NCBI GenBank assembly: GCA_963798465.1
Contig: CAWCTC010000001.1
Coordinates: forward strand, 68,315 to 132,314
From: an uncultured bacterium
GTDB lineage: Bacteria; Patescibacteriota; Minisyncoccia; Phycocordibacterales; GWA1-40-21
Direction of reading: 5' to 3'
DNA: 64,000 nt
Shown here: piece after piece, positions 4,353 to 43,810 of the stretch
Position numbering within the stretch: the stretch's first letter is position 1
How the letters are laid out: the number at the start of each line of letters is the position of its first letter
The notes under the pieces: model-generated
Seen by the model: only the letters and a program-made list of their open reading frames with translations
Told to the model about the DNA's origin: nothing
Databases searched by the model: none
Position numbers and translations under genes: made by a program

Positions 4353-5235
4353 TTATTTATACCAACGAGCAAAAATACCGCAAGGTAAAAGTCTTCCGCC
4401 TTTTGATTCGAGTATCGTAAGCTCGCCCATTTCAAACTCTCCTCCATATTTTTCAACGATGGGTTTTAACGCATTATAATATGCAGTTGAAGAATAGCCT
4501 GAAGCATAGCCGTTTATTATAAAAAATAAAGGATTGTCAGAAATGATTTTCTGGCATTCATCCAAAAGTTTTATAAAATCAGTTTCAATTTTCCAAATTT
4601 CACCCTTTCCTCCTCTTCCAAAAGATGGCGGATCCATCACGATACCGTCATATTTTCCACCGCGTTTTATTTCTCTCATCACAAATTTTCTTGCATCATC
4701 AATAATCCATCTGACTGGTTTATTTATCGAGTCCGGAAAGTTCCGCATTTTCTTTTGCCCAAGTGATTGCAGATTTTGAACCATCAACATGCGTGACTTC
4801 CGCTCCGGAAGAAAGCGCGGCAAGCGTCGCACCACCGGTGTAACCGAAAAGATTCAAAACTTTTATCGGTTCTGTATTACCTTTAGACTTTCGACTTTGG
4901 ACTTTCTCCTTAATGAATTGCCAGTTTGATTCTTGTTCTGGAAAAACTCCCGTATGCTTGAAAGCTGTCGGCTTGATATTAAATTTCAAATCGCCAAAAG
5001 AAATCTGCCATTCATTTTGCATGCTTTCGTTTTTCTTTTTCCAAGTTTTTCTGTCCGCGAGAAATATGGCATCCGCATTTTTCCATTCGGTTTCTAGCTG
5101 AGACTTTTTCCACAAAGCTTGCGGATCCGGTCTTCTCAAAATATATTTTCCATAACGTTCAAGCTTCTCTTCATTTCCACTGTCTATGAGCTCGTAGTCC
5201 GCGCTTGGTTTAGTTGTTAGAATTTCCGGTTCCAT
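4353..5235 (-). pseudogene. class I SAM-dependent (rRNA-type, RlmI/RlmK-like) methyltransferase, reading frame split once
   Basis: ORFs 4720-5235 and 4353-4835 join as ...ENAELSGLDK/PVRWIIDDARKF. Motifs are LNLFGYTGGATLAAL and MDPPSFGRG. One apparent extra A in GATAAATAAACC near 4740-4750 breaks the frame. Confidence 0.8.
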
Positions 5236-5529: not shown

Positions 5530-6378
5530 TCAGATACCAAAAAAATCTTTTGAATTCTTTAATAGTTGTTTGCAAACCATTTCAAAATCTTCTCCGCGGA
5601 TTTCAGCGATTTTTTTCACAACTTCAATGACATAAATCGGCTCATTTCTCTTTCCGCGATAAGGAATCGGCGCAACAAAAGGCGAATCAGTCTCCGCATG
5701 CATCTTTTCGAGCGGAATATTTTTTATTATTTCATCATATTGTCTGGCAAAAGTAATTACACCCGTAAAAGAAATTGTAAAACCAAGCTCAATAAACTTT
5801 TTTGCAAAGTCTAAACTGCCGGCATAAAAATGTATATTCCCTCTTGCCTTTCCTTAATATTTTTTTAGAATTTTATAAGCATCTTCGTAGGCTTCGCGAA
5901 TATGAAGCATAAGTGGCTTATCATATTTAATTGCAAATTCTATTTGTTTCTTGAATTCAAACTTTTGTCTTTCCTTTTCTTCTTCAGAAATTACTTTTAA
6001 CTTTTCACTTTCAACTTTTGACTTTGGATTTACGTAGTAATCCAAACCGCACTCGCCTATCGCAACGACTTTTGGATTTTTCACCAACTCTTCAAAATCT
6101 TTTTCATTAAATACAAAATCTCTTTTGCTTGCCACGAGGTCAGCAGACTTTTCGTGGTCAGCTGGATGTGCACCGATGCATGCCCAGATATTTTCATTTT
6201 CGTTTGCGATTTTTATTGCTTCTTTTGAACTTTCCAAATCCGTTCCGACAGTAATTGTCGCAACACCATTTTCTTCCATTCTTTTGATTACTTCTTTCAA
6301 ATCTTGACCATAATCGCCAAAATCTAAATGAGAATGAATATCTATAAACTTAATTTCCATTTTATTCTTTTCTAACAA
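5530..6378 (-). pseudogene. tatD: TatD-family metal-dependent hydrolase interrupted by an in-frame TAA
   Basis: N-half is ORF 5854-6378 (IDIHSHLDF, GECGLDYY, MLHIREA). The same frame continues after TAA at 5854-5856 with GKARGNIHFYAGSLDFAKKF...HAETDSPFVAPIPYRGKRNEP...FFGI, stopping at TGA 5530-5532. Total length is a multiple of 3. Confidence 0.8.
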
Positions 6379-7909
6379 ACAAAGGAGTTTCTGGTTTTTT
6401 ATTTTCTTTTACAAGATTTTTAATTTTTTCTGAAGTGTCTGGAAGAACAGCTTCAAGATGAACTGCGATTTCATAAACTCCTTGCACTAATTCTTTTATT
6501 ATTTCAATTGCTTTTTCTTTATCTGTTTTTACAAGTTTAAATGGTTCTGATGTTTGAATTCTTAAATCCAATTCACCTATTTTTTTCCAAATAATATTTG
6601 TAGCTTCTTGGAGATTATATTTTTCTACCGCTTCTATGAAATTTATGGCCAGTACAACTTCCCTGGTTTGCTTCGCTTCGCTCGCAATGACGTTATTTTG
6701 TGCCATTGTCATCACCCTACTTACAAGATTTCCCAAACCATTCGCCAAATTTGCATTATAAGCATCTTTGAACATTTCTTTTGTGAAAGGCGTATCTTCA
6801 AATGGAGAAATTTCTCGCGCAACATAATATCTCAAGGCATCAGTGCCATATTCAGCAACAATTTCATTTGGGTCAATTGTATTTCCAAGACTCTTGCTCA
6901 TTTTTATTCCGCCAGCACCAGTAACGAAGCCATCAATAATAATATTTTTTGAAGCTGGTAAATCCGCAGCCATAAGCATTGCTTGCCACATCGCAGACTG
7001 CTGGCGAAGATTATCTTTCCCGCAATATTGAACCATTCCACCAGTTTCAACCTGCCATTTATTAAATTTTTCCATGTCATCCGGCCAGCCGATTGCAGAA
7101 ATATAATTTACTAAAGCATCAAACCAAACATACATAACTTGCGTTTCATCTCCAGGAACTTCAATTCCCCACGGCATTTTTTCTTTCAATCTTGAAATGC
7201 TGAAATCCTGCAAACCTCGATCAACAAAAGCTTTTATTTCGTTTAGTCTGTGATTTGGAATTACAAATTCAGGATTATTTTTGTAAAGTTCAGAAAGTTT
7301 GAATTGAAATTCTGAAAACTTGAAAAAATAGTTTTCTTCGTTAATATGTTCAATTTCTAGATTTGGATGAAGCGGACAGCAACCATCTACAAGTTCTGAA
7401 TTTGCTTTTTCAAGCTCGCAACCAACACAATAATTTATTGTATAATTTTTCTTGTATATAAAACCATTCTTATCGCAAAGTTTCCAAAATTCTTGAGCTG
7501 ATTTTATATGATGTTCATCGGTGGTTCTTGTAAAAACAACATCTTCTGAAATTCCCAAAAGTGGAATCAATGCTTTAAATTTTTCTGCATATTCATCTAC
7601 ATATTTTTGCGGGCTGATTTTTCTAATCTTCGGCATTTCTGAAAATTTTCGATCCATGTTCATCCGTTCCGGTATTGAAAAAAACATCAAAACCTTGGAG
7701 TTTTTTGTAGCTAGCAATCATGTCCGCTCGAATAATTTCCATCGCAAAACCGATATGAGGATCAGAATTCACATACGGCAATGTCGTCGTTATATAAAAG
7801 CAGCTTGCGCTCTTATTTCGCTCTCCTCGGCTCGAAAAAGAATCCGTAGGATACGGATTCTTTTGCTCGCACTACGTCGGCGATAGAAATTTTTCGTTGA
7901 ATCAGACAT
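6362..7909 (-). pseudogene. metG: methionine--tRNA ligase, interrupted by an 89-nt insertion near codon 9 and one further frameshift
   Basis: MSDSTKNFY[89 nt]ITTTLPYVNSDPHIGFAMEII...FNTGTDEHGSKI, then a shift near 7640-7650 into ORF 6362-7717, which carries the KMSKS motif (GGIKMSKSLGN). Confidence 0.85.
7794..7882 (-). mobile_element. 89-nt hairpin-containing insertion inside metG, flanked by TTCTAT/TTTTAT direct repeats
   Basis: Removing 7794-7882 restores AAT TTC TAT ATA ACG ACG = NFYITTT. It contains a perfect 13-bp stem AAAAGAATCCGTA-GGA-TACGGATTCTTTT at 7836-7864. Confidence 0.55.
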
Positions 7910-7932
7910 TCCAATTTAAATTTTAAAATAAA

Positions 7933-9102
7933 TTATGCTTTGCTTTTTTCTTCCACTTTCTGCCACTGCATCACTTTCCGTTTACCGACATCGTCAAAAA
8001 ATTCCATGAGAGCGGCAACAGCCGGAGCTGACAATACGATTCCCAAAAATCCGGCAAGCTTTGCACCTATGATAAGAGCTAGAATGACTAATATCGGAGA
8101 AACTCCAACAACTTTTTTTACAACCAAAGGATAAATAAGATGGCTTTCAAATTGCTGAACGATTAAATAAAGACCGAGAACTAGAATCGCTGCTGTAAAT
8201 CCTCCGCCGACAAAAGCAATTATTATCGCAGGAACTGCAGAGATTATCGGACCAAATACCGGAATAATTTCCAACAAGCCTGCAAGCACGGCCAAAAGCA
8301 AAGCGTCTTTTACGCCAAGTATCATAAGTCCCAAATACAAAAGAACTGCAATAATGATTCCAAGTAAAAATTGCCCTTGCATCCATTGGCCGATTTTTCT
8401 CTGAGATCTTTTCCATAAATCGACGACATATTTTTCATTTCTAAGCGGAGTAATCAATTTCAAAAAGTCGGCAACACCATCTTCCTGAACGAGAAAATAA
8501 AAAGACAAAACCAAAATCAAAATAAATGAAAGCAGACCTCCGAAAATCGCGCTGATTATTTTTATGAAATTTGTAGAGAAGTTTGAAGTAATGCTTTGGA
8601 TGCCTTTGATGAGATCTTCCAGTCCAAAAGTTCCCGCTGGAGCTGCCACACTTGTTTGGCCTTGTGTAACAGTCTTCACTAATTGGCCGGTGCCATTTAT
8701 TCCTGCAGACAAAGTATTTACAACTTGTTGAGAAGTTGAAACACTTTCAGTGCTGACATTCAAAGGATTCCAAAGAGATGTCGTTTCCAAATATTGCGGC
8801 AAATCATTCAAAAAAGATGATGCTTCATCGAGTACTGGCGGCACGAAGAAAAATATCAACGCGATAAAGATACTGAATATTCCAACGTATGAAATAATCG
8901 AAGCTGGAAGTCTGCTAACTTTATATTTTTTGAACCATGTAATAAGAGGTTCCATTCCAGATGCAATTACAACTGAAACTAAAACAACAAGAACGACATC
9001 CTTTATATAATAAAGAAACCAAACCAGCAAAACTAATCCTATACCCTTAAATATGGAGCTTGGAGTAATATTTATATTTATTGGCTTGTTTTCGATTTCC
9101 AT
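7933..9102 (-). CDS. AI-2E family transporter (PerM/UPF0118-type permease)
   Basis: 389 aa polytopic membrane protein with family-typical LLAVLAGLLEIIPVFGPIISAVPAIIIAF. Confidence 0.8.
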   Translation of the reverse strand: MEIENKPININITPSSIFKGIGLVLLVWFLYYIKDVVLVVLVSVVIASGMEPLITWFKKYKVSRLPASIISYVGIFSIFIALIFFFVPPVLDEASSFLNDLPQYLETTSLWNPLNVSTESVSTSQQVVNTLSAGINGTGQLVKTVTQGQTSVAAPAGTFGLEDLIKGIQSITSNFSTNFIKIISAIFGGLLSFILILVLSFYFLVQEDGVADFLKLITPLRNEKYVVDLWKRSQRKIGQWMQGQFLLGIIIAVLLYLGLMILGVKDALLLAVLAGLLEIIPVFGPIISAVPAIIIAFVGGGFTAAILVLGLYLIVQQFESHLIYPLVVKKVVGVSPILVILALIIGAKLAGFLGIVLSAPAVAALMEFFDDVGKRKVMQWQKVEEKSKA

Positions 9103-9109
9103 AAAATAA

Positions 9110-9118
9110 ATAATAGCA
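9110..9118 (-). promoter_or_regulatory. extended -10 box (TGcTATTAT) 7 nt upstream of the permease ATG
   Basis: Minus strand reads AGTGCTATTATTTATTTTATG, with no SD. Same geometry as at ponA and the pilB-like gene. Confidence 0.4.
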
Positions 9119-9260
9119 CTTAATATCGTTTTTTAAAAGCAAACTGAAAAAATATTTTTATGCAAGCTTCCACATTTTTCCATCTATAGAAGTATGAAAC
9201 TAAACATGATAAAATCTATGCTGTAAGCCCATGCAGTATGGAAACTCGGTAAGAAAAAGC

Positions 9261-11063
9261 ATGATTAAAAATAAAAAAAATAACCGCGGATTTTCACTTG
9301 TTGAAAACTTGATTGCTCTTGGAATTTTTGCGGTGCTGGCGGTTGCAATATATCAGACTTCCACCCTGCTCGTTAAAACTGTCAGCGCATATCGCCAAAA
9401 TGTCAGCATCTCCAGCCTCGCCGATGAATATATGGAAATAGTCCACAACTTGCCATATTCGAGCGTTGGAACTTTAAGCGGAAATCCGCATGGAAATCTT
9501 CCAGACTTGCCGAATGCGTATAATGTAAATGTAGACAGCATAAAATACCAAATTTACTATGTGGTCAATTATATTGATGATCCGGCAGACGGAACTGCTT
9601 TGGCCGGAACAGATTTTGCTCCAGATGATTATAAGCAAGTCAAACTTTATATAAAAAATTCAAGTTCAGGACAAATATACAATTTTGTCACGAACATTGT
9701 GCCAAAGGGACTGGAAGGTTTAGAAAACGGCGGAGCACTCTCAATCGAGGTTTTTAATGCCGTCGGACAGCCTGTGCCGAATGCCACAATAAATATTACA
9801 AACACAAGCATAACGCCGAATATAAATCTTACCAGAACAACAGACGCAAATGGAAATTGGATTGAGGTCGGATTGCCTGACAGCGTAAGCAGCTATCATA
9901 TTACAGCGACAAAAGCCGGATACTCAAGCGACCAGACTTATCCAAGCACGCAAAGCAATCCCGATCCAGTAAAATCCGATGCAACTATCGCAAACGGACA
10001 AGTCACGCAGATCAGCTTTTCAATTGATAAATTAAGTTCGCTTTCTTTCACTACACTGGATCAAAATTGCCAGATTCTTTCCAGTATTGGAATGAATGTT
10101 AAAGGTGCAAAACTTATCGGCAGTCCCAATGTGCTAAAATTTAACAATAATTATTCCTCTGATGCCTCTGGTGCGATTTCACTTGGAACAATTGAATGGG
10201 ACAATTACACTCCAACTCTGACCGGGGCAAATTATATGATTTACGGTTCATCGCCGATACAGCAAGTCAGCATTCTACCGAATACAAACCAAAACTTTAC
10301 TTTACTTCTCGGACCAAAAACTACAAACAGCTTGCTCGTCATAGTCAAAGATGCGACAAGTTTGAATCCGATTGAAAATGCCAACGTTGAATTGCAAAAT
10401 ACTTTCTTGGACACGGATGAAAGCGAAATTACCGGAGGCAGCGTCTGGAGTTCTTCCGATTGGACCGGCGGAGGAGGCCAGATGGATTGGACGGATGAAA
10501 CAAAATATTCCGACAGTTCGGATTTGAGCGCGGATGTTTTGCCGACAGCTTTGCGTTTGCTGAGCTACGACGGCGGAATCACGTACGCCATGAGCGGAAA
10601 TCTGACTTCTTCGACTTTTGATACTGGAACAGCTTCGACAACTTGGACGACATTGAATTGGCAGCCGACTTCAAATGATCCTGCGACGCTAATCGAGTTT
10701 CAAATCGCTGTGAGCGATACGGATGACGCAAGCACGACTTGGAATTTTACCGGACCGGATGGAACAAGCGGAAGTTTTTATACGACTTCCGGAACGACAA
10801 TAAATGCGCCGGGCGCAAGATATGTCCGCTACAAAGTTTTTTTGAGCACGAATGACAGTTCAAAAACTCCCGTGCTGACAAGCGTAAATGTAAATTATGT
10901 TTCCGGATGCTATACGCCAGGACAGGTTTTCTTTCCAAGTCTGTCATCATCAAGCAACACTCCATATCAGATAACAGCAAGTGCATCAGGCTACACTACT
11001 CAAACAATCAGTCCGCTGGTTATCGACGGATATCAAACTTTGGAAATTCTAATGAGCCAATAA
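9261..11063 (+). CDS. large prepilin-type (type IV pilin-like) protein with carboxypeptidase-regulatory-like beta domains
   Basis: MIKNKKNNRG/FSLVENLIALGIFAVLAVAIY is a class III signal with G-1 and E+5. A ~590 aa Ser/Thr/Asn-rich body follows. I preferred Met at 9261 over the track start 9231. Confidence 0.8.
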   Translation: MIKNKKNNRGFSLVENLIALGIFAVLAVAIYQTSTLLVKTVSAYRQNVSISSLADEYMEIVHNLPYSSVGTLSGNPHGNLPDLPNAYNVNVDSIKYQIYYVVNYIDDPADGTALAGTDFAPDDYKQVKLYIKNSSSGQIYNFVTNIVPKGLEGLENGGALSIEVFNAVGQPVPNATINITNTSITPNINLTRTTDANGNWIEVGLPDSVSSYHITATKAGYSSDQTYPSTQSNPDPVKSDATIANGQVTQISFSIDKLSSLSFTTLDQNCQILSSIGMNVKGAKLIGSPNVLKFNNNYSSDASGAISLGTIEWDNYTPTLTGANYMIYGSSPIQQVSILPNTNQNFTLLLGPKTTNSLLVIVKDATSLNPIENANVELQNTFLDTDESEITGGSVWSSSDWTGGGGQMDWTDETKYSDSSDLSADVLPTALRLLSYDGGITYAMSGNLTSSTFDTGTASTTWTTLNWQPTSNDPATLIEFQIAVSDTDDASTTWNFTGPDGTSGSFYTTSGTTINAPGARYVRYKVFLSTNDSSKTPVLTSVNVNYVSGCYTPGQVFFPSLSSSSNTPYQITASASGYTTQTISPLVIDGYQTLEILMSQ

Positions 11064-11071
11064 AAAATAAA

Positions 11072-11695
11072 ATGATTAAAAAAAATAAAAAAGAATCAGG
11101 ATTCACTTTGATAGAAACTATGGTAGCCATATTAATTTTTACCATTTTGGCACTCGGCGTAAGCACTTTATTCACAAATATATTTATAAATTCAAAAGGG
11201 CGATTTGCAGCAATCAGCGATATAGATCAGGCTCAGATGGTGGCAACGAATTTTACAAATGAAATTCGAATCGCATCAACCGGAAATACCGGCGACTATC
11301 CGATCAACCAAGCCAGCGACACGCAAATAATTTTTTACTCAAACTACAAGCAAAGTCCGGGAATCGTGGCGCGCATACGATATTATTTGTCAGGAAAAAC
11401 ATTATACAAAGGAATTGTGATTCCTTCAGGAAGTCCGCTGTCTTACAATTTATCGCAAGAAAAAATCCAGGATGTTCAAAATGATGTTTCAAATAACGGC
11501 AAACCTATATTTTATTATTATGATGGCAACTATAACGGCAGTTCGACTCCCCTTGTCCAGCCGATCAATGTCAACCAGGTAAAATATGTAATAATGAATA
11601 TGAATATTTTGAAACAGCCGAACACATCCACGACGACATTCAATATTTCCGCCGGAGCTTCGATAAGAAATCTAAAAACCAATCTGGGAAATTAA
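11072..11695 (+). CDS. prepilin-type N-terminal cleavage/methylation domain protein (minor pilin/pseudopilin)
   Basis: MIKKNKKESG/FTLIETMVAILIFTILALG. The track ORF start at 10907 overlaps the preceding gene and was rejected. Confidence 0.8.
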   Translation: MIKKNKKESGFTLIETMVAILIFTILALGVSTLFTNIFINSKGRFAAISDIDQAQMVATNFTNEIRIASTGNTGDYPINQASDTQIIFYSNYKQSPGIVARIRYYLSGKTLYKGIVIPSGSPLSYNLSQEKIQDVQNDVSNNGKPIFYYYDGNYNGSSTPLVQPINVNQVKYVIMNMNILKQPNTSTTTFNISAGASIRNLKTNLGN

Positions 11696-11699
11696 ATTT

Positions 11700-13100
11700 A
11701 TGGAAAAAAAAATCAATCAAAAAAAAGGTTATGCACTGGTATATCTGCTCATCATTATTTTTATTTTTTCCACAATGCTCATGCCTCTCATAAATTTGGT
11801 AGTAACAGAAATGAAAGTGGCAAATTCTACGATTGACAATGAAGAGGCTCTGCAGATTGCCGATGCTGGAGCAAATTATTATCAGTGGCACCTGGCGCAT
11901 TTTCCATCCGATTACAAAGACGGAGCAAGCACTACCGGACCCTATGTGCACAATTATGTAGATTTCGATACGCAAAAAACTATCGGGCAATTCAGCCTGG
12001 TAATCACTGCGCCGACGACCGGCTCGACAATCGTCACGATAAAATCGACCGGCTCGACAATTGATAATCCGAAGATAAAAAGAACCGTCACGGTAAAATA
12101 TGGAATCCCTTCTTTGGCCCAATATGCGATATTGAACAACGGTCCTGTCTGGATTTATTATTCTCCATCGATTTTCAGCGGACAAGTCCAGTCGAATAAT
12201 GGAATACGCTTTGACGTGCAAGGCAATGCGCCGATTTCTTCCTCAAAAGCAACTTACACTTGCCCGTCTTGGCAAGACTGTCCGCAAGGAACAATGCCCG
12301 GAGTCTGGGGTTCCGGGAATTCATCCTTTTGGCAATATCCCGTGCCGGCAATTGATTTTTCTGCCTTCACTTCAAATCTAGCGAGCATAAAAAGTTTGGC
12401 GCAAAGCGGAGGAATTTATCTGCCTCCGTCAAACGCAAAAGGATATTCTTTAGTTTTCAACGGCGACGGAACCGTAAGCGTCTACAAAGTTACAAGTTTA
12501 AAATCAAATCCTTCCGGCAACACCTGGGATGTAAATATGACTTGGATAACTGAAGACGAATATACGGATTATAATAACAGGACTCTGCAATATAAAGTTT
12601 CCATACCTTCAAATGGAATTATTTATGTCGAAGACAATGTCTGGGTTGAAGGAACAGTGAACGGAAGAGTCACTGTGGCCGCTGCGACGCTTCCATATAA
12701 TTCTTTATCTGCTCCTACGATTTTTATTCCAAACAATATAGTTTACAAGGCAAAAGACGGTTCGGATGTATTGGGACTCATCGGGCAGAAAGATATTATT
12801 CCGACATATCATGCGCCGAATAATTTGGAAATCGATGCAGCAATCATTTCACAAAACAGCAGCGTGCAATTTTTCGATTATAATGGAGACATAAAAAACA
12901 ATCTCACAATCTACGGCGCAATCATAGAAGCTGGCTGGTGGTTCGACAACTTCGTGTGGACAAATGACATCGGCACAGATGTCGTATCCGGTTATCCCAA
13001 TAATTATTACAACTATGACAGCAATCTTCTCTACGGTCCTCCGCCGAGTTTCCCTTTTTCAGCTTCGGGTTATCAGCAGATAAATTGGACCAGCAATTAA
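11700..13100 (+). CDS. pilus-associated protein with N-terminal hydrophobic anchor (PilX-N-like)
   Basis: 466 aa, MEKKINQKKGYALVYLLIIIFIFSTMLMPL.., no E+5. It is located within the pseudopilin gene run. Confidence 0.5.
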   Translation: MEKKINQKKGYALVYLLIIIFIFSTMLMPLINLVVTEMKVANSTIDNEEALQIADAGANYYQWHLAHFPSDYKDGASTTGPYVHNYVDFDTQKTIGQFSLVITAPTTGSTIVTIKSTGSTIDNPKIKRTVTVKYGIPSLAQYAILNNGPVWIYYSPSIFSGQVQSNNGIRFDVQGNAPISSSKATYTCPSWQDCPQGTMPGVWGSGNSSFWQYPVPAIDFSAFTSNLASIKSLAQSGGIYLPPSNAKGYSLVFNGDGTVSVYKVTSLKSNPSGNTWDVNMTWITEDEYTDYNNRTLQYKVSIPSNGIIYVEDNVWVEGTVNGRVTVAAATLPYNSLSAPTIFIPNNIVYKAKDGSDVLGLIGQKDIIPTYHAPNNLEIDAAIISQNSSVQFFDYNGDIKNNLTIYGAIIEAGWWFDNFVWTNDIGTDVVSGYPNNYYNYDSNLLYGPPPSFPFSASGYQQINWTSN

Positions 13101-15008: not shown

Positions 15009-16776
15009 TTATTCCGTCACAACTCTCAAAACTTCCTCGATCGTCGTCATACCTGTAACACATTTGAATATCCCATCTTCAAGCATAGTGAGCATTCCTT
15101 CTTTTTTTGCTTGAACTTCTATTTCCTGCGAAGTCGAACCTTTCATGACGAGATCTCTTATCGCCGGAGTCATTTTTAATGTTTCATGAATTCCGATTCT
15201 TCCGGCATATCCGTCTGGCGCATCAATAGATGCTTTGGCTTTATAAAAATAAATATTTTCCCAATCGTCAGTTTTTGAAATCAGATTTTCATTCCTCAAC
15301 GTTTCCAAAACCCTATTCAAATCGACAATTTTTGCAAGAGAAGCCAATTCCGCTTTGGTCAAAAGATATTTTTCTTTTTCTTTGGTCAATTGTCTGATAA
15401 GCCTCTGAGCCAAAACGATATTTATCGTTGATACGAGAAGAAACGGCTCGATTTTCATATCCATAAGTCTTGGAATCGCTCCGGCGGCGGAATTTGTGTG
15501 CAAAGTCGAGAGCACCATGTGTCCGGTCAAAGCTGCATTCACGGCAAGAGAAGCGGTTTCATCATCTCTGATTTCTCCGACCATGATGATGTCAGGATCC
15601 TGCCTGACAAGCGAACGAAGTCCGTTTGCAAAACTGAATCCTATTTCCGGTTTTACCTGAGTCTGATTTATTCTTGCGACTTGATATTCAATCGGGTCTT
15701 CAATCGTTGCAATATTTACATCGGGAGTATTCAATACTTCCAAAATGGTATAAAGAGTGGTCGTCTTTCCGCTTCCGGTAGGTCCGGTTGTCAGAATCAT
15801 TCCATTCGCTTCTTTCATTGCATCGTGGATTCTTTCCAAATTTATTCCATGAAAACCCATGGATTCCAAAGTGTAAGCTCCGACATTTTCTCTCAGAAGA
15901 CGCATGACAGTTTTTTCTCCGAAATATGTCGGAATGATTGAAACTCTGAAAGAAACTTTTTCTCCATTGATGTCGATTTTGAATCTTCCGTCCTGAGGCA
16001 ATCTTTTTTCATCAAGCTTTAGGTTTGAAAGAACTTTTATCCTGGCAGTTATACTTTCTCCGGCATTTTTTGGAAGAATCATTGCATCATGCAAAAGCCC
16101 GTCGATTCTGTATCTGACAAGAATATCATTTTCCAGACACTCAATATGTATGTCCGAAGCATTCTGCAAAGCTGCGTGTTTCAAAAGAGTTTCTACGATG
16201 CGGATGACCGGAAGATCCTCCGCCATATTTTTCAAAGTTTCTTCGAGAGGTTCGCCTTTATTTCCAATTTCAAGATTTCCCGAGTCTTTCAGAGCTTGAA
16301 CATCTTTCTGTATCAATTCCCCGAACTCAGCTTTCAAACTTTTTTGATATTGGAGAAGCGCGCTTTTTATCGAAGCTGTGTCCGTCAGTCTTGGCAAGAA
16401 TTTTCAATCCGACTTTCTTTTTTATAAATTCTATTTCCGGCAAATCATTTATGTCAAGCATCGCGACTTCCAGAGAATCCGGATTTTTCTTGAAAGCTAC
16501 TATATTATTTTTTCTGGCAAGTGGTTCGGGAATTATCGAAAGCACGGGAAAATCGATTTTTTGATTTTTCAAATCGACAAAAGGAATTCCGGATACATAA
16601 GCCTGCGCTTTACGAAGATCATCGTCGGAAATTTTTCCCTGACTGACTAAAACTTTCTCGGGAGTATCTTTAAGCTTCCCATTTTTTATAAGACTTTCAA
16701 TATCATCATACTCAGTCTTCGTGACAAGACCTGTATCTATTAAAAAATCTTTAAGTTGTTTACTTTCTAGTGCCAT
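15009..16776 (-). pseudogene. pilB: type IV pilus assembly ATPase PilB (GspE family), one frameshift after the N-terminal domain
   Basis: ORF 16327-16776 (T2SSE N-domain) and ORF 15009-16397 (Walker A GPTGSGKTTT, IMVGEIRDDETA, TGHMVLSTLHTN) join as ...KKVGLKIL/PRLTDTASIK. One extra base near 16393-16400 breaks the frame. Confidence 0.9.
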
Positions 16777-20090: not shown

Positions 20091-22820
20091 TTATATTTCC
20101 GAACTCGTCGAAACTCCGAGCTTTACAGTAGTCATACATTGTGTCGAAGCTGACTGGTTGCCCACTATTGCCGAGACAGGGAAAGATTTTTGGCCTATGG
20201 TTGTATAAATTGTATTGTATGAATTTGATACGAAAGGAAATGAAGCACCACTTACCGGACTTTTTTTATCCGTAGCCGACAAACTCCATGTCATTTGTTT
20301 ATTTACATATATATTAGTGTCAGTAGCCGCATTGCCGGATTGTGATGGAGTACATCTCAATCCTGGATAAAGATTCAGTGTTGCACTGGTAGAGTTTCCA
20401 TCATATAAACATGTGAGAACATAGTTAACGCCGTTATCAAGATCATCTTGAGTTGGAGTTACAGTTCCCTGCAATCCTGATATTGGTGGTATTGCTGCGG
20501 CACCATTTTTTTCTAAAGAACATGAACCAGCAGTTGCACTCCAATTCACGAGTGTTTGTCCTGTTGAAGTGCTGAGTAAAAGAGAAATTCCGCCAGTGTT
20601 AGACGGCGAACAAGTCAAAGTTGAATTCCAAACTTTATTATTCAAAGCGTTTGAAGTTCCTGAATAATCCACGCTTTCGACAGTAGCAGTAATCGGATGC
20701 GATTTCCCGTCTTCGAAAACAGAGCCCGAAGGAATATTAAATACATAACTATGATTTGGAAAACCTCCACAGGAAACATCCGTAGACCAATCAGATTGAT
20801 TCGCTGTTATTGTGCCGAGTGTTGTTCCTCCCGAACTTATTACAACAGGAAGCTGAGCAGAATAATCGTCGGGATCGCAAACCCATCCTTCAACTCGACA
20901 GCTTGTCGATACTGGAGCGGAAACTAAAGCCGGTGTAACTGATTGAGTTGTTTGGGTTGGATTGTTTACTGGAATTGCTACAAAAGTCGCTGATATAGTG
21001 TGATTCGCGGTTACATTTGAAAATGTATATGTTGAAATTATTCCCTTGTCACTGCCATCAACTAATACATCCGAAATATTATATCCAGATAATGGATTTA
21101 TCGAATAAGTTTTAGAAGAACCTGAGGACACAGATGCTGTAGTTGCAGGACTTATTGTTCCTCCCGCTCCGGCAGATGCTGTAATTGTGTAAGTTGTTGG
21201 TGCAACTACTATAGGTGCAAAAGCTACAGATATTGTGTGACTGGCACTAATATTTGAGAATGTGTAAGATGAGTTTACTGCTACGGATTTGCCGTCTACC
21301 AAAATTGAAGATATGTTATAACCAGAATTTGGAGTTATTACATATGTAAAATTACTTCCTAAGGGTACGGTTTCTGGTGTGACAGCTGGTTTTATTGTTC
21401 CGCCTGTTCCCACAGATGACGTGAGAGTATAATAAGTACCAGGATTAGTAGGAGCAGGAGTTGGCTGACTCGCTGGAACTAAAGTAAAGGTGGCATTTAT
21501 TGTGTGAGATGTATTTACATTAGTAAAATTATAACTTGTTATTTTTCCTACCGAATTCCCATCAACTGTAACATCTGAAATAATATAATTTGGCGAAGTC
21601 GTAGAAATTATATATAACTGTGAACTATTATTTGATACTACTGTAGTACCCAAAGGGTTTATTGTTCCGCCTGTTCCGGCAGTTGATGTTATAACATTTC
21701 CAACTGGAATAAAAGTAACCGACACCTTAATATCAGAATATACACTTGCAAATTCATATTGTTCTGGCTTCCCTACGGTATACGTCTGATAATTTGTAGG
21801 TGTCTGACTGACTGGTGAAATCTCTGTCCAAGTACCAACCTTATAATTTGTATCTGGGGTTGCAGTAAATATAATATCAGCGCCCTGGCAAATACCAGAA
21901 GATTGATTTACAGAAATTGTACCTCCACCGCCGTTAACTATTCCAGTTGCCGTATAATTATTTGAGGTAATAGCTGTAGGTGCACAATAAACACCAGATA
22001 ATGAGGTGCCAGCATATGCTATATTGTATGTCTTGCTATATATCGTCGTTGCAACCGAACTTATTTTGTCAAATACATTTTTAAAAAAACCTAAAAAATT
22101 AGAAGTTTTGCTGTTCGCCATCTGAGTGGTAATTTGATTCAAAGACACTGAACCACTGATAGGATTAAATTCTCCGACAGGGGGCTGATCGGCGGTTGAA
22201 TTTTTTGGAACAACAACAACTGTAGCGTTGCAAATACCATCAGAAAGTCTTAATGCTATAAGATTTGAAGCATTAATAGTCATAGAATATGTGCCTGGAG
22301 TATTATAGGTGTAAGAATATTTTATTTCTCCATTATTATTCTGTGTTGCGGCACTATAAGTGATAACTTTAGAACCATCAGAACCAATGAAAGAAAACAT
22401 CTCGCCCGCGGCTTCCCCTTCGCCATACCAAGTGGCTGGACTGCCGAGAGTAACAGGTGATGATTCAACACCACAACTCACTGGATGAGAACCGGAAATA
22501 TCACCAACGCCGGTAACAGCATTCGTAAGCCTATTTTCTCCGTCCTGAATCATAGATCCACCTACCTGTCCTAAACTGTTGTTAATACCAACTGCATTAC
22601 CCACGGCACCAGCAGCTGTTGTAACAACACCGCCTACCGCTTCAACAACACCTACAACTGCATTAATTACAGGATTAACAACTACTGTTACAACAGTATG
22701 AACTGCACCTCCTAGGTGGCAAAAGATATTGCAATCAGCCTTCGCAATTACCGGAGTGATTGATGAAAGGATAAAAACAAAAGCAATGACAAATACTGAT
22801 AAAATTTTTGAGTGTTTCAT
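20091..22820 (-). CDS. large secreted surface protein (909 aa) with tandem InlB-B-repeat-like domains and conserved C-terminal module
   Basis: Signal MKHSKILSVFVIAFVFILSSITPVIAKA, a Gly/Val-rich stretch, then repeats such as LTSSVGTGGTIKPAV...GYNISSILVDGKSVAVNSSYTFSNISASHTISVAF. Confidence 0.7.
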   Translation of the reverse strand: MKHSKILSVFVIAFVFILSSITPVIAKADCNIFCHLGGAVHTVVTVVVNPVINAVVGVVEAVGGVVTTAAGAVGNAVGINNSLGQVGGSMIQDGENRLTNAVTGVGDISGSHPVSCGVESSPVTLGSPATWYGEGEAAGEMFSFIGSDGSKVITYSAATQNNNGEIKYSYTYNTPGTYSMTINASNLIALRLSDGICNATVVVVPKNSTADQPPVGEFNPISGSVSLNQITTQMANSKTSNFLGFFKNVFDKISSVATTIYSKTYNIAYAGTSLSGVYCAPTAITSNNYTATGIVNGGGGTISVNQSSGICQGADIIFTATPDTNYKVGTWTEISPVSQTPTNYQTYTVGKPEQYEFASVYSDIKVSVTFIPVGNVITSTAGTGGTINPLGTTVVSNNSSQLYIISTTSPNYIISDVTVDGNSVGKITSYNFTNVNTSHTINATFTLVPASQPTPAPTNPGTYYTLTSSVGTGGTIKPAVTPETVPLGSNFTYVITPNSGYNISSILVDGKSVAVNSSYTFSNISASHTISVAFAPIVVAPTTYTITASAGAGGTISPATTASVSSGSSKTYSINPLSGYNISDVLVDGSDKGIISTYTFSNVTANHTISATFVAIPVNNPTQTTQSVTPALVSAPVSTSCRVEGWVCDPDDYSAQLPVVISSGGTTLGTITANQSDWSTDVSCGGFPNHSYVFNIPSGSVFEDGKSHPITATVESVDYSGTSNALNNKVWNSTLTCSPSNTGGISLLLSTSTGQTLVNWSATAGSCSLEKNGAAAIPPISGLQGTVTPTQDDLDNGVNYVLTCLYDGNSTSATLNLYPGLRCTPSQSGNAATDTNIYVNKQMTWSLSATDKKSPVSGASFPFVSNSYNTIYTTIGQKSFPVSAIVGNQSASTQCMTTVKLGVSTSSEI
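20976..21959 (-). repeat. four tandem ~85-90-codon coding repeats (InlB-B/Flg_new-like) within the 909-aa gene
   Basis: Protein-level repeats x(A/V)G(T/A)GGTIxP...GYxISxxxVDG...YTFSNxxxxHTIxAxF. Coordinates are approximate. Confidence 0.6.
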
Positions 22821-22895
22821 ATTATTTAGTAATTTTTTGTTAAATCAAACTGAATACAATTATAACACAAGATTTTATAAAAATATTCACAACAG

Positions 22896-22926
22896 TTGAC
22901 AAAAAAACATATACTGATAATATACT
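22896..22926 (+). promoter_or_regulatory. sigma70-like promoter upstream of nusA
   Basis: TTGACA (22896-22901), a 16-nt spacer, then TAATAT (22918-22923), overlapping TATACT. Confidence 0.5.
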
Positions 22927-22939
22927 TGTATTGAAGTTC

Positions 22940-22964
22940 GCCCGAAAGGCGGGCTCATTTTTTT
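22940..22964 (+). terminator. leader hairpin plus T7 run between the promoter and nusA (candidate attenuator)
   Basis: GCCCG-AAAGG-CGGGC followed by TCATTTTTTT. It lies ~15 nt after the -10 box and ~105 nt before the nusA ATG. Confidence 0.45.
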
Positions 22965-23068
22965 AAAAAAATAAGGAATGAAGTGACTATATTTTCTTTA
23001 TCCTTTAGGATTAAAAAATTATAAAGACAACGCATCAATATTTTATTAACAAATAACCAAATAAAACA

Positions 23069-24262
23069 ATGATAGACCTAAAAGTAATAAATTCAGTAAT
23101 TGAACAGATGGAGCAAGAGAGAGGCGTGCCAAAAGCTAAAATGCTTGAAGCTATTGAAATGGCTCTTGCCACTGCATACAAAAAAGAATATGGAAAAAGA
23201 GGACAAATAATTAAGGCTAAGATTGACCTCTCGAGCGGAAAAATGGAATTCGTCCAAATAAAAACTGTCGTTGATAAAAACGATGTTGTCATCCGTGAAG
23301 AAAAAGATGATGCCGAAGCTGAAGAAAGATTCAAAAGATCAAAAAGAATTGAAGAAGAAAAAGAAGAATTGAATGAAAAAGGAGAAAAAATAGTTTATTA
23401 CAATCCCGAACATCATATTTTTCTCGAGGATGCAAAAAGAATAAAAAAAGATGCAAAAGTCGGAGACGAGCTTGTCTTCCCTCTTGAAGAAAAATCAGAC
23501 TATGGAAGAATTGCCGCGCAAACCGCAAAGCAAGTCATCGTCCAAAAAATAAGAGAAGCTGAAAAAGTTTCCGTCTTCAACGAATATGGAGAAAAAGAAG
23601 GAACGATCGTCACAGGAACAGTTCAAAGACTTGAAAGAGGAAATCTTTTCGTGGATATGGGAAGAGCGACAGCTATACTTCCATTTGAAGAACAAATTCC
23701 TGGAGAAAAATATAAACCTGGAGAAAGAATCCGAGGCTATCTTTATAAAGTGGAAGAAACTCCGAAAGGAATATTCTTGAGACTGTCTCGCTCACATCCA
23801 AAATTCTTGGAAGAATTGTTCAGAAGCGAATCTCCAGAACTTGGAACTGGAATCGTTGAAATAAAATCAATCGCAAGAGAAGCCGGCTCAAGATCAAAAA
23901 TCGCCGTCGCTTCAAAAGATGAGCATATAGATCCAGTCGGCTCGCTTGTCGGACAAAGAGGTGTCAGGGTTTCAACTGTGATGTCAGAACTCGGCGGAGA
24001 AAAAATTGATATCATCGAATGGTCCGCAGATCCAAAGAAATTTATCGAAGAAGCACTTTCTCCGGCAAGAATTCTTTCAGTCACACTGAATGAAGCTGAG
24101 AAAAAAGCTGAGGTGGAAGTCGCAGCGGATCAGCAATCGCTCGCCATCGGAAAAGGCGGACAGAATGTCAGGCTTGCCGCAAAACTTACCGGATGGAAAA
24201 TAGATATAATTTCAGTCGAAGGAGAATACGTGGAAGCTGAAGACGGGGAGGAAACAAAATAA
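23069..24262 (+). CDS. nusA: transcription termination/antitermination factor NusA
   Basis: 397 aa with N-domain, S1 region (GTIVTGTVQRLERGNLFVDMG) and two KH motifs (GQRGVRV, GKGGQNVRLA). Confidence 0.95.
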   Translation: MIDLKVINSVIEQMEQERGVPKAKMLEAIEMALATAYKKEYGKRGQIIKAKIDLSSGKMEFVQIKTVVDKNDVVIREEKDDAEAEERFKRSKRIEEEKEELNEKGEKIVYYNPEHHIFLEDAKRIKKDAKVGDELVFPLEEKSDYGRIAAQTAKQVIVQKIREAEKVSVFNEYGEKEGTIVTGTVQRLERGNLFVDMGRATAILPFEEQIPGEKYKPGERIRGYLYKVEETPKGIFLRLSRSHPKFLEELFRSESPELGTGIVEIKSIAREAGSRSKIAVASKDEHIDPVGSLVGQRGVRVSTVMSELGGEKIDIIEWSADPKKFIEEALSPARILSVTLNEAEKKAEVEVAADQQSLAIGKGGQNVRLAAKLTGWKIDIISVEGEYVEAEDGEETK

Positions 24263-24270
24263 ATAAAAGT

Positions 24271-24299
24271 AGGGCGGCGCCAATGGTGCCGCCCTTTTT
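24271..24299 (+). terminator. terminator after nusA
   Basis: AGGGCGGCGCC-AATG-GTGCCGCCCT followed by TTTT. Confidence 0.65.
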
Positions 24300-24368
24300 G
24301 TTTGCAAATAAAACGATAAACTATATAATAAGCGTGAATAAGAGTTCAAACAATAAATTATTTTCAAT

Positions 24369-24557
24369 ATGGAAGAAAATAAACAACAAAAAGATGATTT
24401 TGGAGCGATGGCCGGCATAATAATTGTTGTCATATTATTGCTTGTCGGAGCTTTATATTTCGGCAAACAGAGAATAGAACAACGCAAACAATTTAAATCA
24501 ACTTTGCAGGAGGCAACTTCAACAATTTCGACTTCAACGATAAATATTTCAAAATAA
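24369..24557 (+). CDS. small single-pass membrane protein (62 aa)
   Basis: MEENKQQKDDFGAMAGIIIVVILLLVGALYFGKQR... It has its own terminator downstream. Confidence 0.45.
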   Translation: MEENKQQKDDFGAMAGIIIVVILLLVGALYFGKQRIEQRKQFKSTLQEATSTISTSTINISK

Positions 24558-24563
24558 AAAAAT

Positions 24564-24597
24564 AAAAGGGGCGGCCGCTTTCGCGGCCGCCCCTTTT
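24564..24597 (+). terminator. terminator (NotI-stem family)
   Basis: AAAAGGGGCGGCCGC-TTTC-GCGGCCGCCCCTTTT. Confidence 0.7.
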
Positions 24598-24631
24598 GCA
24601 TTTTTCCAACTTTTAATATAAACTGTTTTTT

Positions 24632-25693
24632 ATGGAAAATACAAAAATATACAAAATAAAAGATACGAAAAAACTTCCCGAAAGCGAGGTTGAAATAACA
24701 GCAGAAATTACTTTAGAAGCATTGGAAAATTATAAGACAAAAGCTTTCAAAAAAATAAAAGAAGTCGCAGAACTTCCCGGTTTCAGGAAAGGCCATGTTC
24801 CAGATGCAAAATTGAAAGAAAAATTCGGAGAAATGGGCGTGCTTGAAGATGCGGGCGAAATGGCAATCAACGATTGTGCCGCAGAAATCCTACTAGAAGC
24901 AAAAGTTAATTTTCTCGGCAGACCAAATATTGCAATCAGCAAGATAGCAATCGGCTCTCCTATTGAATTCAAAATTAAAGTCACGATAATGCCGGATATA
25001 AAACTCCCCGACTACAAAAAAATTGCCAAAAAAGAAAATTCTGTTGAAGAAAAAGTTGAAGAAGTCACCGAAAAACAAGTTGAAGAAACAATCGGAGAAA
25101 TAAGGAAAATGTATGCACAACAAAACCATACACACGCCGAAGGTGAAGTTCATAAAGAAGGCGAGGAACTCCCTCTTCCGGAAATAAACGATGAGTTTGT
25201 AAAAAAACTCGGCGACTTCAAAGATGTCGAGGATTTCAAATCAAAATTAAAAATAAATATTGCAAAGGAAAAAGAAGTCCATGCTGAAAATAAAAAGAGA
25301 ACGAGACTCATGGAAAAACTCGTCAGCGAAACAAAATTCGAATTACCAAAAGTTATAATTGAAAGCGAACTCGACAAGATGGAAGCTCAGTTCAAAGGCG
25401 ACATCGCGCAAATGGGACTTCAGCCGGAAGAATATTTGAAGCATATCAAAAAAACTTGGGAAGATTTGAGAAAAGAATGGATGCCTGATGCAGAAAAAAG
25501 AGCAAAGACCCAGATGATTCTGCAAAAGATTTCTTTGGAAGAAAAAATCGAACCGAGCAAAGAACAAGTTGAAAAGGAAGTTAAAAATCTCATGGATCAA
25601 TACAAAACCGCCGATCCTGAAAGAGTTACCGCTTATGTAGAAATGGTTTTGGTGAATGATGCAGTGATTAAATTCTTGGAAAGCCAGAAATAA
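24632..25693 (+). CDS. tig: trigger factor, short form apparently lacking the FKBP/PPIase domain
   Basis: 353 aa. The ribosome-binding signature is ELPGFRKGHVP and the C-terminal arm domain is present. Only a short linker (MYAQQNHTHAEGEVHKEGEELPLPE) sits where the PPIase domain normally lies. Confidence 0.85.
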   Translation: MENTKIYKIKDTKKLPESEVEITAEITLEALENYKTKAFKKIKEVAELPGFRKGHVPDAKLKEKFGEMGVLEDAGEMAINDCAAEILLEAKVNFLGRPNIAISKIAIGSPIEFKIKVTIMPDIKLPDYKKIAKKENSVEEKVEEVTEKQVEETIGEIRKMYAQQNHTHAEGEVHKEGEELPLPEINDEFVKKLGDFKDVEDFKSKLKINIAKEKEVHAENKKRTRLMEKLVSETKFELPKVIIESELDKMEAQFKGDIAQMGLQPEEYLKHIKKTWEDLRKEWMPDAEKRAKTQMILQKISLEEKIEPSKEQVEKEVKNLMDQYKTADPERVTAYVEMVLVNDAVIKFLESQK

Positions 25694-25955
25694 ACTACTA
25701 CCGGCTAAAAGCCGGTAGTTTTGGATAAGACTAAAGTCCGATATTAAATACAAATGCAGACCCATACTCGTGTGTCATTCCCGCGAAGGCGGGAATCCAG
25801 AATTAATAGTGTCGCAGTTATAGGACGGTTGTGCGAGTGACTTCGCTAAGTCAAACCTAGATTCCCGTATTCACGGGAATGACAAATGTCATCCAAAACT
25901 AATCTTAAAAGGACTGCCTGAAGGCGGGAGTTTTGCTACCAAAGGTGGATAATAA
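25694..25955 (+). repeat. ~250-260-bp composite repeat, copy A (immediately after tig stop)
   Basis: Near-identical to 46413-46672. It contains hairpin CTACCGG..CCGGTAG, a 110-bp unit bounded by GTCATTCCCGCGAAGGCGGGAATC and GATTCCCGTATTCACGGGAATGAC (25774-25883), and the 50-nt motif (25809-25856). Confidence 0.9.
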
Positions 25956-41926: not shown

Positions 41927-41955
41927 AAAGGCGGGCCGTAAACGGCCCGCCTTTT
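41927..41955. terminator. bidirectional terminator between 41622 gene and ruvC
   Basis: AAAAGGCGGGCCG-TAAA-CGGCCCGCCTTTT. Confidence 0.7.
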
Positions 41956-42578: not shown

Positions 42579-43765
42579 TAATTTTAACAAACCTCTTCTT
42601 ACCTATTTTAAGAGTAATTCCACTATGTATTTTGAAATTCACATCTGTAATTTTTTCTCCAGAAACCGCATTACTTATCGCATTTTCTGTCACAAGTCTT
42701 CTAAAATCAGTTTTTGAAGAAACAATTTTATTTTCTACTAATAAATCAATCAAAGATTTACCATTCTCAACTTTTATTTCCTCCATATTTTCAGGTAATC
42801 CACCTTTTTGAAAAGTATTAATAAAGTCATTTTCTGCTTTTTTCGCTTCTTTTTCGGAATGATAAAATTTAACAAGCTCATAAGCCAGTTTCATTTTTAT
42901 GTCTTTTGGATTAGTGCCAGATTCTAAATCTTTTTTATATTGTTCAATAATATTTGTATCAACTCTTGTAGTAAAAATAAAATACTTAATAATATAATCA
43001 TCTCTTAATGACAATATTTTTCCATACATATCACTTGGAGAATCAAAAAGATTTACAGTATTTCCCCAACTTGAACTCATTTTTCTACCATCCAAACCTT
43101 CAATAATAGGATTAGTAATAATATTTTGTGGTTCTTGTTTATAATGTCTTTGTAATTCTCTTCCTGCTAATATATTAAATTTTTGATCGCTTCCCCCAAT
43201 TTCAACGTCCGCTTTAATAGCAACGGAATCATATCCTTGCATAAGTGGATACAATAATTCTCGGAGTGATACTCTTTTCCCTGCATCAAGTCTTTTTTTA
43301 ATATTTTCTCTTGAAATAAAGTTACTCAATGAAAAGACATTCGCTTGTTCACAAATTTCATTATATCCAAGTTTTCCAAGCCATTTACTATTGTAGTGAA
43401 TTTCACATTTTTTTATATCGATAATTTTACTAGCTTGAGCTATATAACTTTTCATATTATTTTTTACCTGATCTTTTGAAAGCATTGGCCTTTCACTTTC
43501 TTTATCAGAAGTATCACCAATCACAGCTGTAAAATCACCGATAATCCAAACTATTTTATGTCCTAATTCTTGAAATTGACGTAATTTTAATAAGGGTATA
43601 GACCTGCCTAAATGTATATTTGGACTTGTTGGATCAATCCCTAGTTTTATGCGTAATTGTTTACCACTTTTAAGTTGTTGCTTCTAAATTATCTTTTTCA
43701 ATAATTTCTTCAACTCCACGAGTTAGAATTTCTTGAATTTTCTTTGGATCAGTATCAATTTTCAT
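42571..43765 (-). pseudogene. tyrS: tyrosine--tRNA ligase, one frameshift near codon 30
   Basis: MKIDTDPKKIQEILTRGVEEIIEKDNLEA/QQLKSGKQLRIKLGIDPTSPNIHLGRSIPLLKL... continues into ORF 42571-43524, which has KMSSSWGN (KMSKS-like) and a C-terminal S4-like region. The shift is near 43675. Confidence 0.85.
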
Positions 43766-43810
43766 ATATCAAATCTATCATAAAAATTAGTTTTTTTCTA
43801 TCGGCTAAAA

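Follow-up and report, generated by a model that had tools for sequence, protein, structure and literature searches.

A small hairpin-rich repeat of Patescibacteria inserted in frame near the start of metG

The 89-nt segment that interrupts metG, the gene for MetRS, after its ninth codon is a short-form copy of a small, non-coding, hairpin-rich element of many Patescibacteria (CPR) genomes that had not been catalogued before. Very probably it is a copy tolerated in frame by its host gene, with the frame broken in the assembly of the window alone (the window being the whole 64-kb stretch of DNA analysed here). Most close orthologues of metG have an empty site, relatives carry the element there as open reading frame, and other copies are scattered over many metagenome contigs, mostly between genes. 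To our knowledge the reduced genomes of CPR/Patescibacteria are not usually seen as hosts of small repeat elements.

RESULTS

The metG locus

The gene is encoded on the minus strand and starts with an ATG at 7909 (Table 1). As the original prediction had it, the codons MSDSTKNFY are followed by an insert of 89 nt (7882..7794) and then by ATA ACG ACG ACA TTG CCG (ITTTLPYVN...), in a frame different from that of MSDSTKNFY; the TTCTAT and TTTTAT flanks and the perfect hairpin of 13 bp with a 3-nt loop at 7836-7864 were likewise found, and the upstream frame is open through the whole insert, up to a TAA at 7792..7790. The insert is richer in G+C (49%) than the window (36%). Its T-run is part of a stem, not separate as in an intrinsic terminator, and a consensus scan of 7500-8100 found neither intrinsic terminator nor promoter in it.

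Table 1. Features of the metG locus in the window
Feature	Coordinates	Strand	Basis or remark
metG start and first nine codons (MSDSTKNFY)	7883..7909	-	frame reading, orthologue N-termini
Left flanking direct repeat TTCTAT	7888..7883	-	last 6 nt of the MSDSTKNFY segment
89-nt insert, short-form copy of the repeat element	7794..7882	-	covariance model, allele comparison
Conserved 5′ block CGCCGACGTAGTGCGAGC	7865..7882	-	the family's conserved G is absent directly after 7865
Hairpin 1, perfect 13-bp stem and 3-nt loop	7836..7864	-	arms 7836-7848 and 7852-7864
Conserved 3′ block CGAGCCGAGGAGAGC	7820..7834	-	partial direct repeat of the 5′ block
Tail hairpin (AUAAGAGCG/UGCUUUUAU)	7794..7818	-	ends in TTTTAT
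Right flanking repeat TTTTAT	7799..7794	-	encodes the second Phe-Tyr
metG segment ITTTLPYVNSDPHIGF...FRNAE with the HIGH-type motif	7626..7793	-	frame set by the lost G
Second metG lesion, extra A at 7627 (GAAG[A]TTAG)	7623..7628	-	gives premature TAG at 7625..7623
Rest of metG, start-codon frame regained	6362..7622	-	source of the truncated 433-aa product P0002

Removal of the 89 nt had been expected to restore a textbook N-terminus. It does not restore the gene, as a second frameshift, overlooked at the time, lies 238 nt downstream of the insert, where the A at 7627 is surplus relative to five homologues. The remainder of the gene, in the frame of the start codon, is contained in a 451-aa ORF (6362..7717), and an in-frame TAG follows ...FRNAED. 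Exact look-ups of the truncated product and of a 354-aa ORF at 30509-31573 returned no record.

Empty and filled sites in orthologues

A protein search affiliates metG with Paceibacteria/Patescibacteria. Most of the close orthologues (P0001 and P0003-P0008; 484-486 aa, 80-86% identical) have no insert (...KKFYITTT, SKKFYITTTLPYVN), and their empty-site DNA reads AAAAAATTYTAT followed directly by ATAAC; in two contigs the junctions are AAAAAATTCTAT with ATAACG (L107) and AAAAAATTTTAT with ATAACA (L108). The metG segment is therefore an insertion. Three protein clusters have it at the identical site and in frame: P0068/P0246 (519 aa; KNFY-RRRSASEKNPYPTDSFSSRGERNKSASC-FYITTT), P0241 (516 aa, with the same insert as P0068/P0246) and P0026 (513 aa; KNFY-RRRRASEKNLSGEDSFSSRGERKKRNR-FYITTT).

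The DNA of the insert was read in 12 assemblies from ENA, Logan, JGI and GenBank. Its length is 90 nt in eight of them and 87 nt in three, the window being the only one with 89 nt; in all 11 others it is open and in frame. In the window a G has dropped out between 7865 and 7864, at the 5′ foot of the hairpin (GAGC-AAAAG against GAGCGAAAAG), as shown by the eight 90-nt copies and by the covariance model of the family described below; at the downstream lesion it reads GAAGATTAG.

The alignment of MetRS from relatives proposed with the original prediction thus separates a majority of orthologues without the insert from 11 other assemblies that have it. The predicted 1-nt shortfall is present in the sequence, although it had been placed beside the T4 run at 7797-7800 and the base lost is this G. 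The same correction applies to the suggestion of an in-frame insertion like a Rickettsia palindromic element (RPE) with one assembly error in a homopolymer: the 90- and 87-nt copies of the 11 assemblies bear out the in-frame insertion, and the T-run is not the place of the lost base. The other suggestion, a mobile palindromic element that kills the frame, was right as to kind, in that the family is multi-copy and two genes have both filled and empty sites, but the frame is killed only in the window assembly.

Comparison of alleles points to recombination between strains at this locus. Between window positions 6365-7780 and the co-occurring contig L003 (10140-11560) the body of metG is a mosaic, with 54-96% identity per 100 nt, and its flanks are 96-100% identical. 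The body of the neighbouring tatD is also mosaic relative to L003 (78% amino acid identity plus indels, with flanks 96-99% identical). Together the two genes make up a mosaic stretch between strains whose identity is otherwise 95-98%, and metG alleles are exchanged between otherwise near-identical strains. In two diverged metG copies long identical stretches flank the hairpin, and the top of the hairpin differs. Two very different metG alleles, of HIGF and HMGH type, have the 5′ end and the insert in common. Because identical inserts precede metG bodies that are 70% diverged, the insert appears to spread between alleles by homologous recombination.

Distribution of the repeat element

A scan of one genome per species with a 19-mer taken from the 3′ block gave three real matches: the metG copy of an organism of the L003 type (L010) and two intergenic copies upstream of rpsA (L007 and L009). 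For metagenome contigs we used a two-block pattern, GCCGACGTAG N25-55 GAGCCGAGGAGAG, which yielded 95 stretches representing 81 distinct copies of 82-184 nt, up to two per contig. Other copies, which the original prediction had proposed to look for, thus occur in metagenome contigs; neither blastn-short nor an unfiltered covariance-model search found any further copy in the window.

The covariance model was built on 70 copies. It places the window copy at 7813-7887 (73.8 bits, E 5e-22), with a gap aligned at the conserved G. Applied to 661 kb of loci it found only one copy beyond the pattern matches, and extra copies in flanking DNA amount to about one per 200 kb, which indicates a low copy number per genome.

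Most copies are intergenic, with about two of the 81 distinct copies inside genes, and all four orientations relative to neighbouring genes are represented. A terminator-like hairpin and T-run immediately precede about 20 of them. In several lineages the element is found just upstream of rpsA (ribosomal protein S1), again after a terminator-like hairpin (L007 348-420, L009 797-870, L031, L049 and L106); these copies could mean that the site is conserved or that the element functions in the S1 leader. A third coding insertion was considered in L087 and dropped, as the spanning ORF looks spurious.

Rfam gave no match in the window at the gathering score, and none on ten element-bearing loci at E up to 1 or 0.1. 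The tRNA and tmRNA scans found nothing, viral contigs held no copy of the element, and no transposase or other mobilising partner was found. Near copies that lack a close right end, and near orphan right ends, no element-borne ORF was evident. The searchable literature held nothing specific on a CPR repeat family matching the element. A perfect GC-rich palindrome at 41927-41954 of the window, AAAGGCGGGCCGTAAACGGCCCGCCTTT, adjoins ruvC and looks like an ordinary bidirectional terminator.

Anatomy and fold

The element runs GCCGACGTAG-AGCGAG, variable hairpin, CGAGCCGAGGAGAGC, and a tail hairpin clamped by A/T. Its left part is a conserved block, GCCGACGTAGAGCGAG, from which a 12-bp hairpin of variable sequence leads to CGAGCCGAGGAGAGC; the second hairpin is clamped by an A-run and a T-run and closes the element with ...CCTTTTAT. 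There are two size classes, a short form of 82-89 nt, to which the metG insert belongs, and a long form of 157-171 nt, which is the majority and in which the loop of the second hairpin is enlarged by three more hairpins. In the alignment of L012-L097 (A3) these extra hairpins are nested between two copies of GGTTTAATACC in the loop of the tail hairpin, and at least the first of them (CCGCGGC...GCCGCGG) covaries.

The stems change freely in sequence, with compensation, and hairpin 1 bears no relation to hairpin 2. In hairpin 1, 96% of the alignment cells are paired and all 12 pairs show changes on both sides; the observed covariation was reached by none of 500 shuffles and by no slid register. 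There are 25 G.T wobbles against 13 A.C or C.A mismatches, an excess that speaks weakly for the strand shown as the one that folds, whether as RNA or as single-stranded DNA.

Between them the two conserved blocks can form an imperfect rod that holds two tandem G.A mismatches and in which one base pair varies from C-G to U-G; the bases that precede GCCGACG and follow GAGAGC combine as C/G in 24, T/A in 21 and T/T in 25 cases. The invariance of the two blocks is partly a product of the exact-match search pattern.

The left end (YGCCGACGTAG...) and the right end (...GGTTTAATACCTTTTAT) show no complementarity, and terminal inverted repeats are missing from the element. In front of almost all copies stands (T)TTAT plus T or C, the immediate left flank being (T)TAT or TTAY in nearly all. 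At both coding sites TTYTAY is repeated on the two sides. In intergenic copies only TAT or TTAT is common to the left flank and the constant right end, with two TAC...TAC cases and one exception. The flanking TTAT or TTTTAT could be a target duplication of 3-6 bp, or an element end that mimics the target.

A second host gene and the host proteins

The element also occurs in frame at codon 11 of a gene for a DUF2914 membrane protein (L026, 814-908), where MPIIKHIRDFY-RRRRARVMEKVNFFHYRAEESGKRLKI-FYARFERP has 27 aa inserted after RDFY. A 75% identical protein, P0124, carries the element too, with a compensated hairpin (ITDKVNFVRY), and the orthologues P0122-P0131 (362 aa) read RDFYARFERP and have none. 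The element has thus entered two unrelated genes, each time after Phe-Tyr (TTY-TAY) near the N-terminus. For each host gene the open, in-frame state is kept in two lineages.

With its TTTTAT end the element encodes Phe-Tyr a second time, and so FYITTT is restored behind the insert in MetRS. An AlphaFold model of P0068 (40-sequence alignment, mean pLDDT 86) has pLDDT below 50 for residues 1-35 and its first strand at residues 38-43. The old N-terminus together with the insert is thus predicted to form a disordered tail before an intact Rossmann fold. Judging solely from the conservation of the frame and the lack of stop codons, the insert is presumably translated.

Frameshifts in the window

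The contig most informative about the broken frame is L109 (Logan run ERR11594402), which matches window 12909..6128 at 99.79% and encodes an intact MetRS of 516 aa. All nine substitutions and all three indels that separate it from the window fall inside metG, and the 5.2 kb of flanks are 100% identical. Of the three indels, one is a 3-nt deletion at 7897 and the other two are the lost G and the surplus A at 7627. Because L109 has the same flanks and yet an intact metG, the frameshift is specific to the window assembly. A second contig of the same run, L111, is 100% identical to window 20901..25717 (4.8 kb).

Other genes of the window are broken as well. The polA gene (26280-28732) is spread over four ORFs through three frame changes, near 28163-28173, 27805-27823 and 26624-26756, and in the relative L110 it is intact (822 aa). 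In tyrS (43670-43770) there is one frame change near 43672-43686, which puts the N-terminus MKIDTDPKKIQEILTRGVEEIIEKDNLE and the following ...KSGKQLRIKLGIDPTSPNIHLG in different frames. Relative to L003, pilB (a T2SSE ATPase, 588 aa) is split by an extra C at 16398 and a gene for a SAM-dependent methyltransferase (293 aa) by an extra C at 4731, neither of them within a homopolymer, and tatD has a nonsense change from GAA to TAA at 5854-5856.

These lesions are probably local consensus errors at places where co-occurring strains differ; real lesions in the window strain are a good deal less probable. For the metG frameshift itself, consensus error is more likely than a real lesion. Under either account the length of 89 nt is no trait of the element itself. 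Without a check of the reads, no biological reading should be attached to the broken metG, polA, tyrS and other genes of the window assembly.

DISCUSSION

Proposed course of events

The element would have entered metG directly after the Phe-Tyr codons TTY-TAT (codons 8-9), at a T-rich site of the TTAT type that nearly all copies of the family abut. Its ...TTTTAT end would then have supplied a second Phe-Tyr, so that the first β-strand of the Rossmann fold (FYITTT) was rebuilt behind it. Being 90 nt long, or 87 nt in a second lineage, and free of stop codons, the insert would add about 30 residues as a disordered, Arg/Ser-rich N-terminal tail, and the enzyme apparently tolerates this translated tail. 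The copy may have spread, or persisted, at a locus with heavy recombination between strains. In the window one conserved G would then have been lost from it and one A gained by metG 238 nt further on. Both lesions are peculiar to this assembly and would most likely be local consensus errors in a strain-heterogeneous region, with real inactivating mutations a less likely source. The choice between error and mutation is inferred, and so is the conclusion that the element is, or was, mobile.

Alternative explanations

The break in the frame might be real, a base having been lost from a decaying metG pseudogene in a cell that draws its MetRS activity from a copy or allele elsewhere in the genome. 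We consider this unlikely, but it takes some strength from the comparison with L109: all 12 differences fall within metG, a gene that holds only some 23% of the aligned bases, and uniform sequencing noise would not cluster in this way. One of the window-specific changes, R68S, hits a residue that does not vary among 40 MetRS sequences, and the exchange of metG alleles between near-identical strains counts in its favour as well. Yet four of the nine window-specific bases match the other co-occurring allele, L003, which is what a mixed-strain consensus would give, and there is no second metG within the 64-kb window. Other genes are broken in the same 64 kb as well (polA by three shifts, tyrS, pilB, the methyltransferase gene and, by nonsense, tatD), which is implausible for a living 0.7-Mb genome.

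The segment might never have been mobile at all, being instead an ancient N-terminal extension that MetRS has in certain lineages, or a vertically inherited cis-acting RNA module such as a leader or terminator. Low copy number per genome, the retention of a copy upstream of rpsA in several lineages, and a core with covarying hairpins and possible tandem G.A pairs, like that of a functional RNA, all fit this view. The idea is nevertheless improbable, given that the same core is met at dozens of unrelated sites and in all four orientations to neighbouring genes, that it lies inside two unrelated genes whose closer orthologues are without it, and that about 20 copies come directly after a terminator-like hairpin and T-run.

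The original prediction had also raised translational bypassing, with the ribosome leaving at TAT (7885..7883), skipping 89 nt and landing at TAT (7796..7794). In known cases (T4 gene 60 and the mitochondrial 'byps' of Magnusiomyces) a GC-richer hairpin lies between matching codons in an AT-rich gene, and the metG insert shares both the GC-richer, stable hairpin and the matching TAT codons; three CGN arginine codons after the take-off codon could be added in its favour. We regard the reading as very improbable all the same. The take-off codon is followed by CGC, not by a stop codon; the gap is 87 or 90 nt of open, in-frame sequence in the 11 other assemblies; and the same element is in frame in DUF2914 and mostly intergenic elsewhere. 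A ribosome that hopped would in any case meet the second frameshift and its TAG (7627-7623), leaving the ORF incomplete. Both bypassing and programmed -1/+1 frameshifting were rejected since the lesions are absent from L109, with its identical flanks, and from all other alleles, and the lesion sites in the window are not slippery. For an intron or intein the segment is too small, and in relatives it is in frame and presumably translated.

That the 89 nt are foreign to metG and were joined to it by an assembly chimera, a possibility to which the poor local quality of the assembly lends some colour and which had been named as a potential refutation, has a negligible chance of being right, as the identical site and insert recur in 11 independent assemblies from ENA, Logan, JGI and GenBank.

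Returning to the in-frame-tolerated repeat, we tentatively suggest, as a further and rather doubtful step, that the family represents a novel type of structured mobile element confined to Patescibacteria, moving or acting in a single-stranded DNA or RNA form and recognised by a putative protein. The features behind this suggestion are the lack of inverted repeats, the fixed TTAT-type site (often the T-run of a terminator), the near-invariant purine-rich rod with its kink-turn-like tandem G.A mismatches, and the covariation of hairpins on one strand. Such an element would be able to add peptide tails to essential genes.

Comparison with known systems

With IS200/IS605-derived elements (PATEs) and REP/RAYT systems the element shares asymmetric ends without inverted repeats and hairpins near the ends. 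Its left end may, as in PATEs, abut a fixed T-rich tetranucleotide (TTAT), and like REPs it has a conserved GTAG 5′ of a palindrome. Its hairpin stems covary, however, and are not conserved in sequence as are the subterminal hairpins recognised by TnpA; the two TAC...TAC cases hint at a true target duplication; and no Y1 transposase was found alongside it.

MITE-like repeats (Correia, BOX, RUP, SPRITE, ERIC/RU) are occasionally intragenic with open frames (PMC10969869; PMC2759123). The element resembles them in being short, non-coding, multi-copy, mostly intergenic and strongly folded; its modular long and short forms recall BOX, and its A/T-clamped, terminator-like hairpins recall SPRITE. It differs in its unrelated ends, its lack of terminal inverted repeats and its low copy number, and no related insertion sequence was found. 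As for a classical MITE, the 81 copies are dispersed, small and non-coding, but terminal inverted repeats are missing. In architecture, then, the element is unlike classical MITEs and resembles IS200/IS605-derived elements or REPs only loosely.

RPEs are small hairpin-forming repeats that lie in frame in unrelated genes, where they add peptide segments compatible with the fold of the protein (reviewed in PMC10969869). The element is likewise palindromic and hairpin-forming (13-bp stem; covariation reached by 0 of 500 shuffles), and its metG and DUF2914 copies are stop-free and a multiple of three in length, the window copy failing by 1 nt. The hosts here belong to a different phylum, the Patescibacteria, so that homology with the RPE sequence families of Rickettsia is not expected; the likeness is one of behaviour. 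About two of 81 distinct copies are intragenic, against nearly half in some RPE families, and both coding insertions are at the extreme N-terminus, after Phe-Tyr.

In behaviour the element comes closest to RPEs and to the intragenic small repeats of enterobacteria (PMC10969869; PMC2759123). It offers a handle for finding a mobilising enzyme and a marker of recombination at metG, and it gives the Patescibacteria a conserved family of structured repeats able to sit, presumably translated, in essential genes as RPEs do in Rickettsia.
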